From positions 2,170,001-2,234,000 of the forward strand of contig MU058213.1 in NCBI GenBank assembly GCA_013265495.1: a DNA stretch of 64,000 nucleotides. Direction: 5' to 3'. Under the pieces are notes generated by a model. That model searched no databases and was not told the DNA's origin. It saw only the letters and a program-made list of their open reading frames with translations. The position numbers were made by a program, and so were the translations under genes. This stretch comes from Vicugna vicugna. Lineage: Eukaryota. Positions 53,817-58,622 of this stretch are shown here, in pieces (the first letter of the stretch is position 1; each line of letters starts with the position of its first letter).

Positions 53817-54073
53817 ATGCTACATGAAGTTATGTGGAAATGAGAGCGTTTCATGAAACCCCTCCTCTGAAAGAGAATGTCTTTCATACGTGGAGCTTTG
53901 CTTCCAGTTTTCATAGGACACTGACCTTGTGGCCGAGCCACAGCGGCCCTTCCTGCTATTTTCAGTGATGCACAGAACATCTGAACAGTGATGCTTGCCT
54001 CAGATTTACAGATTTTCATCCTGATCCCTTGTTTACTTCTTTGGGGCAGAAAAGCTGGCACTCGTTGCTCTCC
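53817..54073 (+). other. UNC13C: 5'UTR portion of UNC13C exon 2 (splice acceptor at 53816/53817)
   Basis: Branch-like TGTAAC, pyrimidine tract and AG (cattcctttcttttAG|atgc), 257 nt upstream of the start ATG. A second candidate acceptor is ccttcctgctattttcAG at 53965. Confidence 0.75.
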
Positions 54074-57065
54074 ATGGTGGCTAATCTTTTCAAGAGCTTG
54101 ATTTTACCTTACATACATAAGCTTTGCAAAGGAATGTTTACAAAGAAATTGGGAACTACAACCAAAAAAAAAGAGAATCGTCAGCCAAAAAAGGATCAAG
54201 ACATTGCCACTGCTGGCCAGACCAAAACCCCCAAATTTTCTAATACCTTGAAAAGCACAGTCAAGAAGATTGCAAAGTGTTCGTCCGCTCGCAACTTATC
54301 CACTGAGGAAGACGAGGCTAACAAAGAGTTTTCCCTCTCGCCGACATTCAGTTACCGAGTAGCTATTGCCAATGGCCTACAAAAAAAAATTAATGTAACC
54401 AATGGTGATAATGAGGATCTGCTTCAAGAGTTTTCTTCGATTGAGAGTTCCTACTCAGAATCACTCAGTGAACTAAGAAGTTCTACGGAAAACCAGGCAC
54501 AGTCAACACACACGATGCCAGTTCGACGCAACAGGAAGAGCTCGAGCAGCCTGGCGCCCTCCGAGGGGAGCTCTGATGGGGAACGCACCCTGCAGAGCTT
54601 AAAACTGGGAGCTTTACGCAAACTGAGGAAATGGAAAAAGAGTCAAGAGTGTGTCTCCTCAGATTCCGAGTTGAGCACGATGAAGAAATCCTGGGGAATA
54701 AGAAGCAAATCTTTGGACAGAACTGCCCGAAACCCAAAGACAAACACTCTGGAGCCTGGATTCAGTTCCTCTGGCTGCATTAGCCAGACTCAGGATGTCA
54801 TGGAAATGATCTTTAAGGAACTTCAGGGAATAAGTCAGATCGAAACTGAACTTACTGAGCTACGGGGGCACGTCAACGCTCTCAAGCATTCCATCGATGA
54901 GATCTCCAGCAGTGTGGAGGTCGTGCAAAGTGAAATTGAACAGCTACGTACAGGGTTCGTCCAGTCTCGGAGGGAAACCAGAGACATCCATGATTATATT
55001 AAGCACTTAGGTCATGTAGGTGGCAAGGCCAGCCTGAGATTTTTAAATGTGCCTGAAGACAGATTTGAATACGTTGAGAGTGTGGTGTACCAAATTTTAA
55101 TAGATAAAATGGGTTTTTCAGATGCACCGAATGCTATTAAAATTGAATTTGCTCAGAGAATAGGACACCAAAGGGATTGCCCCAATGCAAAGCCTCGACC
55201 TATCCTAGTGTACTTTGAAACCCCTCAGCAAAGGGATTCTGTCTTAAAAAAGTCATATAAACTCAAAGGAACAGGCATCGGAATTTCAACAGATACTCTT
55301 GCTCATGACATCAAAGAAAGAAAAGAGAGGGGGATACCGTCCTCCCAGACATATGAGAGTATGGACATAAAGCTGTTGACTCCAGAGCCCAAAACCAAGA
55401 AGAATAATTGGCAGTCACCTGATGACAGTGATGGAGAGCTAGACTCTGACCTCAATAGAAACAGTTACGCTGTGCTTTCTAAGTCAGAGTTTCCAACAAA
55501 GGGAAGTGCATCCAAGTCGAGTTCAAAATCACACAACGCTAGAGCCAAGAATAAAACTGCTAGTAGCAGCAGAATTTCAAATAAATCAGAATATGATCAA
55601 ATTTCTTCACATTTGCCAGAGTCTGATAACTTGGCAAAACAAACCACAGCCCGTTCTGCGGATGCGGTGCCTCTCTGGCATTCCCAGAGTGATTTTTTCA
55701 CTGCTAAACTTAGTCGTTCTGAGTCAGATTTTTCCAAATTGTGTCAATCTTATTCGGAGGATTTTTCGGAAAATCAGCTTTTCACTAGAACTAACGGAAG
55801 CTCCCTCTTATCGTCTTCTGACCGGGAACTTTGGCAGAGGAAACAGGAGGGCACACCTACCTTGTATGACAGCCCTCAGGATCAGTGTGTGAATGAGGCC
55901 CCTCAGGGGGTCCAGGAGCAAAGTGAAATTGAGAACACAGAGACCGCAGATAGTGGAATGAGTAATGGCATGGTGTGTGCGTCTGGAGACCAGAGTCATT
56001 ACAGTGATTCTCAGCTCTCTTTCCATGAGGATCTTTCTCCATGGAAGGAATGGAATCAGGTAGAGCAAGGAGCTGACTTAGGTTTAGATTCATCCACCCA
56101 GGAAGCTTTTGACTATGACATACACAGTTTATCTGATCAACAACTAGAAGTTTACCAGAAAGACCTAGAAGACTTGGGAAAGTGCCAGAGTGACCTTCAG
56201 GATGACTCTGAGAGCTATGATTTAACCCAAGATGACAACTCATCTCCATGCCCTGGCTTGGATAATGAACCACAAGGACAATGGGTTGGCCAATATAATT
56301 CTTATCAGGAAGCTAACTCTAATGAGCTGTACCAAAATCAAAACCAGCTGTCCATGATGTACCGAAGTCAAAGTGAATTGCAAAGTGATGACTCAGAGGA
56401 TGCTCCCCCCAAATCTTGGCATAGTCGATTAAGCATCGACCTTTCTGATAAGGCTTTCAGCTTCCCCAAGTTTGGATCTACACTCCAGAGGGCTAAGTCA
56501 GCCTTGGAAGTGGTGTGGAACAAAAGCACACAGAGTCTCAGTGGGTATGAGGACAGTGGCTCTTCCTTAATGGGGCGATTTCGGACATTATCCCAATCTA
56601 CTGCAAATGAGTCAAGTACTACCCTTGACTCGGATGTCTACACAGAGCCTTATTACTACAAAGCAGAGGATGAGGAGGACTATAGTGAACCAGTGGCTGA
56701 CAATGAAACAGATTACGTTGAAGTGATGGAGCAAGTCCTGGCTAAGCTGGAAAATAGGACAAGTATTACTGAAACAGATGAACAAATGCAGGAATGTGAT
56801 CAGCCTTCATATGAAACACCTTATGAAACCCCACAAGATGAGGGTTATGATGGGCAGGTGGATGACATGGTTAGTGAAGGGGGATTGGAACTCTTAAATG
56901 AAACATCGGCCGAAATGGAAATAAAAGAAGATGAAAACCAAAACATCCCTGAGCAACCAGTGGAAATCACGAAGCCAAAGCGGGTTCGTCCTTCTTTTAA
57001 AGAAGCAGCTTTAAAAGCCTATAAGAAGCAAATGGCGGAATTGGAAGAGAAGATCCTGGCTGGAG
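54074..57065 (+). CDS. UNC13C: Protein unc-13 homolog C (Munc13-3), first coding exon (N-terminal 997 codons + 1 nt; CDS continues beyond the window)
   Basis: Translation [27 protein letters not shown]...[17 protein letters not shown] recognised as the mammalian UNC13C N-terminus. ATG at 54074 (tccATGg). The ORF track's 54029 start is a non-ATG upstream extension. Phase-1 donor GAG|GTATTT at 57065/57066, so the final GIYV* is intron read-through. Confidence 0.96.
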
Positions 57066-58622
57066 GTATTTATGTTTAAATGCTACATTATGAGCTAATT
57101 GTGTTTTAACATTGGGTGGTGCTTCTTTAGAACATGTTCTGTGTTTACTCTTTGGAGAAGTAACTTACTTTCAAGGAATTTGCCTGTTTATTCTGAGAAG
57201 GGTTTTATTTTACTCAGCTGCCCCAACAATTTGGGCTTGATAATTTAAAACCAAAGTGTTTGCAAGTAGATCATATTAAACTACGCCCTGCGTTCTGTGG
57301 ATCAAGATTTCTGTGCTAGGATTAGGTATAAACCTTATTTGATATTAACCAACCTTATCCTACCAGTTATCAAAGGAAGGATGAGTGAAATCAAAGAGCA
57401 GCCTGGGGTCTCATTTTTGGTTCTGTTAGGTTTACAAGGATGGGGAGGAAAGAGAAATTTAATATTAAAGAATTGGGAAAGATGGGCTCCTAGGTTTACC
57501 ACTCCTTTTCTCATCAGATCTACACTTTGGAGCCTGCCAGTAGGCAACCTCAGCCCATACCATGGAAGGACCACAGCCTCCCTCACTACCTACTATTGCA
57601 GCTGGTGGAGGGCATTAGAGCCAAAACCTTAGGCTGTGCCTGAGGGGTCACAAGTCACCCTTTAGGAGGAGACAGTGAGGGGGTAGAGTTGAGAAGTTTC
57701 CTCCTGAAGAGTGAAGTAGAAGTCTCTCTGGGAAATGACAACATTACCTGACCTAATGGTTTTGCTTTATCTTAAGGGGGAACAATTTTGGATAGTACAC
57801 TTTTGAAAAGTAGCTGCACGTAAATAAAAATTTTGTTGATTTTTGTATTACTCAGCTAAACTTCATCTTACCTCAAGCACTTACCTCAATCCTTTAACCA
57901 TTTATTTTAGTTGCATGCTTATCTCTTTATATCTTTGGGATAGTTTGATATAATCTCAATGTTAATGAATTTGATACATTGTTAATGTTTTCCTTGGTTA
58001 CAGCTTTTAAGAGATTTAAAAAACTCTACATAATACTTCATAAAGGTGTACATTTATGTATATGGTCAAGTGTTACTTGCTGTTATGACATAATATAATA
58101 ATTCTTTCAGCCAGTAGCCAATTATGGCTTCTTTTTCTTGACCAAAACTGTGATCAGATTTTACTCCAAACTGGCCATTTTCTGATTGACATGGATGGAT
58201 CACTGAATAATCAGATACCTTTCTGGTTAAACTGTTTCAGGTCCTAAAACAATTGAAATAACAATTAAGGTTCTTTGCTCTAAAAACTCTCCATATAAAA
58301 TAACATATCTTACGTAATTTATTTAAGTCAAGGGCATCTTGGGTGCATTGGCTGTTTTTTGGTTATTATTTTTGGGGGAGAAGTGTTCTTGACTATCTTT
58401 AAATTGATTTAAAAGGGCAAAAGAGTCAAAAATTTTATGTAAATATAATTCATAGTGGAGTAATGTCTATCTTATTTCAGAATGACTCTGATTAGTTAGA
58501 TATTCTTATCACCGACGCTCAGTTGATAGTTTCTTGAAATACAGGCCAGCAGTTTAACATTGTATTTTACTTACTGTAGATTCAGAGAGGTCTACTGAAA
58601 GGCATATTAGAAATAAGCTCTC

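Follow-up and report, generated by a model that had tools for sequence, protein, structure and literature searches.

Munc13 proteins are essential for making synaptic vesicles release-ready, and the isoforms give different synapses different release properties. For Munc13-3 and bMunc13-2, it is the N-terminus that decides where the protein is placed. A 64,000-nucleotide stretch of the Vicugna vicugna genome (contig MU058213.1, positions 2,170,001 to 2,234,000; here called the window) contains the first coding exon of UNC13C, the gene for Munc13-3, and raises the question of where such an N-terminus could have come from. A sequence-only reading of the window had inferred that an ancient open reading frame 1 (ORF1) of the LINE-1 (L1; long interspersed nuclear element 1) type, comprising a coiled coil, an RRM, and the start of a C-terminal domain (CTD), was exapted into Munc13-3. 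Sequence, profile, fold, and phylogenetic comparisons all bear this out. We consider it probable that UNC13C carries a domesticated fragment of an L1-type ORF1 protein (ORF1p), that this fragment goes back to one capture shared with UNC13B (bMunc13-2), and that it consists of an oligomeric coiled-coil anchor with a relic RRM head.

The open frame in question is uninterrupted in the window from 53969 to 57079 on the forward strand, and translation from the ATG at 54074 gives the 1001-residue N-terminal exon product of UNC13C. The open frame, the orthologues, and a GT donor after 57065 define the first coding exon as 54074-57065 (+): an orthologue continues with ...EEKILAG/DSSS and the window has GGAG/GTATT (slashes mark the border), which places the exon end at 57065. 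Window positions 54800-55330 encode residues 243 to 419, and their translation agrees letter for letter with the 177 residues that had been read as an ORF1p-like block. We searched residues 225 to 445 against longer proteins and obtained 469 proteins at an expect value (E) of 0.01 or below among 970 candidates. The best 120 of these 469 relatives are 82 to 95% identical over the searched residues; the named ones are UNC13C of mammals, birds, and reptiles, and their precomputed Pfam domains are C1, C2, and MUN only. Orthologues of the block are found from teleosts to mammals, with 69 to 95% identity over it. A recent L1 insertion and an annotation artefact are both ruled out, because the block is intact and in frame within the first coding exon, as the sequence-only reading had stated, and is conserved from teleosts to mammals.

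Is the block related to ORF1p? A phmmer search of the PDB with a 227-residue block yielded 14 sequences at E ≤ 10, the best of which was human L1 ORF1p (2ykp/2yko; E 0.0016), in an alignment that spans the coiled coil, the RRM, and the CTD start. An intact 300-residue L1 ORF1p from the window's own genome (locus L003) gave an alignment with the block that begins in the coiled coil and reaches the CTD start (BLASTP E 5e-8, 21% identity, 232 columns), and hhalign gave a probability of 88% on the RRM. The motif order that had been described, a heptad-patterned helix followed by the RRM motifs, is present, and its positions align with both the human and the own-genome L1 ORF1p.

Profiles strengthened the match. 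We aligned six UNC13C modules with six UNC13B-type modules (described below) and searched the PDB with the resulting host profile. Among 18 sequences at E ≤ 1, the top four were all L1 ORF1p: 2ykp (2.2e-7), 2yko (2.3e-7), 2w7a, which is the isolated RRM (8.2e-6), and 2ldy (3.2e-5). The next match was a coiled coil at E 0.047. In a phmmer search of 1.84 billion representative proteins, 341 matched at E ≤ 0.001, and the best 150 of them were mostly proteins of 200 to 450 residues that align over both domains of the module, coiled coil and RRM. We aligned 40 of the short representative matches into an ORF1-like profile, the consensus of which reads NLxFxGIPE ... RAHRxG ... KPRPIxVKF ... KLKGTxxGISED, followed by a CTD-like tail. 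This profile matches L1 ORF1p at 7.3e-17 and the host profile with a probability of 99.85% (E 1.2e-30, 159 columns). One cluster of the short ORF1-like proteins includes a coral protein. Separately, in 5 of the 40 short ORF1-like proteins scanned, the coiled coil and RRM are followed by a NADAR domain at the C-terminus. One candidate for the genomic locus of a short ORF1-like protein, L009, was rejected, as it shows 33% identity over 61 residues, has many long overlapping frames, and looks unrelated.

The predicted fold leads to the same family. The AlphaFold2 model, calculated on the host alignment (mean predicted local distance difference test score [pLDDT], 71), has a long helix at residues 13 to 88 of the 227-residue block, with a pLDDT of 85 to 93 in its core. 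This helix (residues 235 to 310 of the exon product; 54776-55003, +) lies directly N-terminal to the RRM as a heptad coiled coil with 3-4 hydrophobic spacing; it aligns with the coiled coil of 2ykp, and its homologue in L1 ORF1p is the C-terminal part of the coiled coil there. Fold, profile, and salt bridges assign residues 319 to 406 (55028-55291, +) to a noncanonical RRM of the L1 ORF1p type. When the model was compared with the PDB by Foldseek, 12 matches reached E ≤ 0.001, and ranks 1 to 10 were all human L1 ORF1p. The best of these was 2w7a_A (E 4.2e-6; template modeling score on the target, 0.72; root mean square deviation, 3.7 A; 100 columns; 24% identity). Generic RRMs begin at E 5.8e-3, about a thousandfold behind ORF1p. 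Both the Foldseek ranking and the host profile thus place the RRM closest to that of L1 ORF1p. Two conserved salt bridges hold the RRM of human ORF1p, E165-R215 and E169-R202, according to a review. The corresponding pairs, mapped through the alignment with human ORF1p, are E328/R375 and E332/R362, and they are invariant in all 12 host modules.

The likeness stops shortly after the RRM. Residues 407 to 420 (55292-55333, +) are a remnant of the ORF1p CTD start, about 14 residues only, whose counterpart in human ORF1p is "...SAETLQARREWG"; the own-genome L1 ORF1p aligns with it as well. In this remnant, R416 and K417 align with the conserved Arg-Arg pair at the CTD start. The model is disordered from residue 187 of the 227-residue block onward (pLDDT, ~40). 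An ORF1p CTD after the RRM is lacking in the host modules, and the CTD-like tail of the ORF1-like consensus has no host counterpart; the CTD has been lost except for its first basic turn.

The module is therefore not a full member of the ORF1p family: coiled coil, RRM fold, and salt bridges are present, and CTD, LINE context, and a score above the Pfam cutoff are missing. Like L1 ORF1p, it is a coiled coil followed by a noncanonical RRM with the motifs xLRxxxVPE, xxR, PRxI, and LKGxxIxxS; it keeps both RRM salt bridges, has L1 ORF1p as its best match in sequence and in fold, and is predicted to form a parallel trimer. Unlike L1 ORF1p, it is without the N-terminal region as well as the CTD of that protein, and the host exon that it belongs to is single copy and joined to the C1-C2B-MUN-C2C priming machinery. 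It is also less basic than L1 ORF1p, and its coiled coil is highly conserved. A LINE-encoded ORF1 would be the first ORF, multicopy, and upstream of the endonuclease/reverse transcriptase ORF; the host module is found at two genome loci only. What the module does have is what marks a domesticated ORF1p: homology, an orthologous host position, and long conservation.

Whether this had already been annotated was something the sequence-only reading could not say. The relationship is in print as a side remark, and it is absent from the Pfam annotation. In a screen of RefSeq proteins with the LINE ORF1 proteins of Dfam, Kitao, Ichiyanagi and Nakagawa (Genome Res 2025, PMC12129022) call a canonical exon of UNC13C homologous to L1 ORF1, without further analysis (Methods and Supplemental Fig. 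S8). Coiled coil and RRM are both labeled in Supplemental Fig. S8, on an AlphaFold model of residues 223 to 404 of mouse UNC13C, and Table S4 gives L1-11_DR (LINE/L1) as the best LINE match of UNC13C. The homology of UNC13C to ORF1 is thus correct and already known. UNC13B goes unmentioned in the available text and 10 supplementary files of the same paper. In the literature covered, which does not extend to most subscription journals, we found no other publication linking Munc13 or UNC13B to ORF1p or linking Munc13-3 to an RRM; three papers that name UNC13B together with ORF1 look unrelated, judged by title and abstract. What is added here, having found nothing in print on these points, is the module of UNC13B, its shared origin with that of UNC13C, and its identity with the ELKS1-binding motif.

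We calculated amniote identity to the window per 30 residues in 20 sequences chosen for taxonomic spread from the best 120 relatives. Identity is 0.96 to 0.97 in the coiled coil (residues 241 to 300), 0.85 to 0.91 in residues 301 to 420, and 0.59 to 0.70 in the downstream flank (residues 451 to 540). The block thus exceeds its flanks in conservation in the 20 amniotes. It had also been described as the only ordered-looking island of the region, and this did not hold: residues 541 to 570 (55694-55783; amniote identity, 0.91) and 781 to 870 (56414-56683; 0.94 to 0.97) are equally conserved in amniotes, and the upstream residues 148 to 242 stand at 0.86 to 0.92. The latter segment (54515-54799, of which 54515-54775, +, lies before the helix) is basic and Ser-rich, contains LRKLRKWKK, and lies outside the ORF1p homology; it does not align with the UNC13B modules, and model confidence is low before residue 13 of the 227-residue block. 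These three further islands keep an identity of 0.63 to 0.87 per 30 residues to fish and match no Pfam family. The change that had been singled out, AHR of ORF1p to AQR, lies at a position that varies freely: crocodile, turtle, and fish have H there, mammals and kiwi have Q, and UNC13B has Y or C. The constrained residue is the neighboring Arg.

Over longer distances, constraint falls mostly on the helix. Compared with a mormyrid fish, the coiled coil (residues 243 to 300) is 93% identical and residues 148 to 242 are 73% identical. In an annotated gadid UNC13C, the sequence jumps from NVPEES to the stretch before SSQTYESMD, and the core of the RRM is gone, as it is in a second gadid protein of the same cluster. 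A flatfish UNC13C fragment resembles the gadid case, with the coiled coil kept and the RRM core gone, and the match of a halosaur UNC13B-type protein is limited to the coiled coil. The motif SSQTYESMD itself (residues 423 to 431; 55340-55366, +) follows the module and is specific to UNC13C: all six UNC13C modules, which span mammal to fish, have it in identical form, and none of the six UNC13B-type modules has it. It is retained in the gadid protein without an RRM core and is disordered in the AlphaFold2 model.

The ORF1p-derived helix would be expected to associate in parallel with copies of itself and, most likely, to form a trimer, as ORF1p does. We predicted a three-copy complex of residues 12 to 190 of the 227-residue block; three runs scored 0.70, 0.68, and 0.70, against 0.10 for the best control. 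Of 30 proteins solved as pairs, 21 reach the mark used to call a complex, and of 23 single-chain proteins none does; for three copies, the mark is only roughly valid. The runs have at least 75% of their contacts in common, with a partner pLDDT of 76 to 78, and the contacts are parallel and in register over block residues 20 to 91. The R-h-x-x-h-E trimerization motif was not found in the helix on inspection by eye, and the a and d positions of the helix are a mixture of I, L, V, and F.

A trimer with an RRM head could still act as ORF1p does, as a trimeric binder or chaperone of single-stranded RNA that ties Munc13-3 to presynaptic RNA or ribonucleoprotein granules; RNA binding was the bolder of the options raised in the sequence-only reading. 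The kept RRM fold with both salt bridges, the predicted trimer, and the position of R416/K417 on the Arg-Arg pair would all suit such a role, as would the charge of the UNC13C RRM, which is mildly basic (net charge, +1 to +4; mean isoelectric point, 8.95; nine sequences). This charge lies below the mean of 107 ORF1-like proteins (net +4.4; mean isoelectric point, 9.36) and below that of the own-genome L1 ORF1p (net +6; isoelectric point, 9.91; one sequence), and the RRMs of six UNC13B-type sequences range from -7 to +4 (isoelectric point, 4.6 to 9.4). The RRM is also the less conserved half of the module, and its core is gone in some annotated teleost proteins. According to a review, the RRM and CTD together are critical for high-affinity binding by ORF1p. 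Because the CTD is missing and the charge of the RRM is lower, high-affinity RNA binding of the ORF1p kind has probably been lost, and we regard an RNA-binding role as unlikely. The RRM may instead be a folded head for protein contacts or for spacing, the relic part of the domesticated fragment.

The UNC13C module has a counterpart in a second Munc13 gene. In the representative search, the Anolis protein named "Unc-13 homolog B" contains the module (E 5.8e-12, residues 152 to 317), as does isoform X18 of horse UNC13B (E 8.6e-10, residues 140 to 301). The matches on the UNC13B side also include one protein each from emu and basking shark and a 1911-residue protein that has MUN and C1 domains. 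A UNC13B-type query found exactly two places in the genome of the window, a UNC13B exon and the window itself. The former is a UNC13B-type N-terminal exon on contig C2762 (L010:535-3258, -), open over 907 codons and 72% identical to the query. It has the module in its first half and shows no likeness to the UNC13C exon outside the module. The alignment of the two own-genome modules covers 171 columns at 32% identity (E 7e-22), and that of their RRMs alone has E 9e-8; in the coiled coil, about 26 of 52 core positions are identical by manual count. The model of the own-genome UNC13B module has the same fold, with all of Foldseek ranks 1 to 10 again taken by L1 ORF1p (E 3e-4 to 1.2e-3). The whole module, coiled coil and RRM, is thus also present in the alternative N-terminal exon of UNC13B, which belongs to the brain isoform, bMunc13-2.

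The presence of the module in two paralogues could have been due to a single capture before the genes diverged. Alternatively, UNC13B and UNC13C might have acquired ORF1 fragments separately, by two captures or by a later transfer of the exon, which would fit the failure of the two exons to align outside the module. We built trees of host modules and ORF1-like proteins to distinguish between these histories. A quick tree contained 122 rows, those of 155 matched proteins that cover profile positions 60 to 170; the 33 left out include the own-genome L1 ORF1p and the proteins without an RRM. In this tree, the 15 host modules form one clade (Shimodaira-Hasegawa-like approximate likelihood ratio, 96). 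A careful tree comprised 60 rows, the 15 host modules and 45 ORF1-like proteins (the 18 best-scoring ones, the neighbor of the host clade [P0176], and 26 chosen at random), with three very long rows left out. The split between host and ORF1-like rows received support of 100/99 and occurred in 100% of 200 bootstrap trees, and each paralogue formed a clade with support of 100/100. On the 91 columns of the RRM alone, support for the host clade was 98/93. The shark protein nests within the B clade; both clades contain teleost proteins.

That the host modules form one clade points to a single capture before the split of UNC13B and UNC13C, and the placement of the shark protein in the B clade and of teleost proteins in both makes this capture at least as old as jawed vertebrates. 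Two acquisitions would also have had to end at the same point, without the CTD. Since each paralogue is a deep clade, any transfer between the genes would have been about as old as the gene duplication. Separate acquisition is accordingly very unlikely.

According to Kawabe et al. (2017, J Cell Biol), residues 145 to 187 of bMunc13-2, a coiled coil, bind ELKS1(771-976), and deletion of this coiled coil impairs active-zone recruitment and priming. The same source reports the motif from fish to human and not in Drosophila, invokes "parallel evolution," and describes a short coiled-coil motif only; neither the RRM nor a retrotransposon origin is recognized there. Since about half of the helix positions are identical, the coiled coils of Munc13-3 and bMunc13-2 are the same motif. 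We infer from the alignments that the motif by which bMunc13-2 binds ELKS1 is the coiled coil of ORF1p, and that the two N-termini are homologous through the whole RRM. The two are alike in being paralogous, in their homologous RRMs, and in their place in one long N-terminal exon. They differ in ELKS1 binding: in yeast two-hybrid and biochemical assays, Munc13-3(1-304) did not bind ELKS1(771-976) (Kawabe et al. 2017).

Experiments on the paralogue, the conservation pattern, and the models together suggest the most likely mechanism. The coiled coil would serve as an isoform-specific anchor at the active zone, in place of the C2A-RIM mechanism of Munc13-1 and ubMunc13-2. That of bMunc13-2 would dock on the C-terminal coiled coil of ELKS1; as Munc13-3 does not bind ELKS1, its coiled coil would presumably dock on another scaffold. 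A more complete version of this history, which we offer tentatively, is that one LINE-1 ORF1 capture, at the base of jawed vertebrates or earlier, provided the common ancestor of UNC13B and UNC13C with a second, C2A-independent N-terminus, the trimeric coiled coil of which both anchors the protein, to ELKS1 or to another partner, and preassembles it into trimers.

An oligomerizing relative of ORF1p might instead act on LINE-1 itself, for example by assembling together with active ORF1p, as proposed for L1TD1 and discussed by Kitao et al. (PMC12129022). Its homology to ORF1p and its predicted coiled-coil oligomer are compatible with this idea, and potential partners are at hand. A model of the L1 ORF1 RRM gave at least 150 scored matches in the 2.03-Gb genome of the window. 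Most of these 150 are 322-codon stop-free frames on many contigs (e.g., L003:1291-2193, -), and this number of open frames suggests that L1 has been active recently in this mammal. The coiled coil of the module is nevertheless distant from that of its own L1 (21% identity over the whole alignment) and has been nearly frozen through the history of bony vertebrates, whereas L1 coiled coils are highly variable, as a review notes. The bMunc13-2 motif, moreover, has a demonstrated partner at the synapse (Kawabe et al. 2017). There is accordingly little to recommend an action on LINE-1, to which we assign a very low probability.

Several observations weigh against a domesticated ORF1p fragment with an anchoring role. 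The profile check proposed in the sequence-only reading came out divided: the PDB searches find L1 ORF1p, and the Pfam family Transposase_22 (PF02994) is not reached. None of three window queries matched PF02994 at E ≤ 10, and scans of the exon product and the block against Pfam gave weak coiled-coil families only. Three of the 12 host modules match PF02994 at E ≤ 10, the best with E 0.0044, and fall below its cutoff of 22.4 bits. Because profile and fold searches agree, we attribute this miss to the Pfam model, which was built mainly from mammalian L1, and do not count it against homology. Among the 40 short ORF1-like proteins, 2 reach Transposase_22 at E ≤ 0.001; that these assembly proteins are encoded by LINEs is presumed. 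The trees are unrooted and so give no direction of transfer, and a shared selective regime together with the odd composition of 2 to 4 host rows could inflate the clustering. The RRM is 59% identical to that of the mormyrid fish, and the rest of the exon is 55% identical; set against 93% in the coiled coil, this makes the coiled coil the strongly constrained half. The teleost proteins without an RRM core may reflect genuine loss in these lineages, which would mean that the RRM matters little, or faulty gene models. Trimerization, which had been raised as a possible gain for Munc13-3, is a prediction of the three-copy model. Since the L1 ORF1p trimer has been solved, that prediction, calibrated on two copies, may reflect likeness or the model's memory of the solved trimer and not independent evidence. 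Finally, anchoring is assigned to Munc13-3 by analogy, and the single partner tested, ELKS1, was negative.

The least probable account, that a generic coiled coil and RRM converged on the ORF1p arrangement or that LINEs took the module from a Munc13 gene, can draw on the unreached Transposase_22 model and the unrooted tree, but the profiles find only L1 ORF1p among solved structures, several orders of magnitude ahead of the next match, Foldseek places ORF1p about a thousandfold ahead of ordinary RRMs, motif order and salt bridges agree, the ORF1-like relatives are numerous and diverse (341 matches, with a coral protein among their clusters), and Kawabe et al. (2017) report the host motif for species from fish to human, with none in Drosophila.

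A domesticated ORF1p fragment in UNC13C and UNC13B thus joins known cases such as L1TD1, Lyosin (MYL4), and isoforms of RFX5, NUP42, and USP4 (Kitao et al. 2025, PMC12129022). Like these, the UNC13C module is coding sequence of the host that descends from L1 ORF1 and has been conserved across species. Unlike them, it lies in a constitutive exon and has lost the CTD. Its occurrence in fish through mammals, and in two paralogues, makes it much more ancient than Lyosin of sauropsids or L1TD1 of eutherians. It would be among the oldest domestications of L1 ORF1 and one of the few constitutive ones, in a core neuronal gene and not in a germline or stem-cell gene. For work on Munc13-3 and bMunc13-2, a shared ORF1p-derived module provides a structural model, construct boundaries, and an oligomeric state that can be tested, and it would explain the ELKS1-binding motif as a repurposed retrotransposon coiled coil. 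If this is true, part of the isoform diversity of vesicle priming in vertebrates rests on a domesticated retrotransposon protein.

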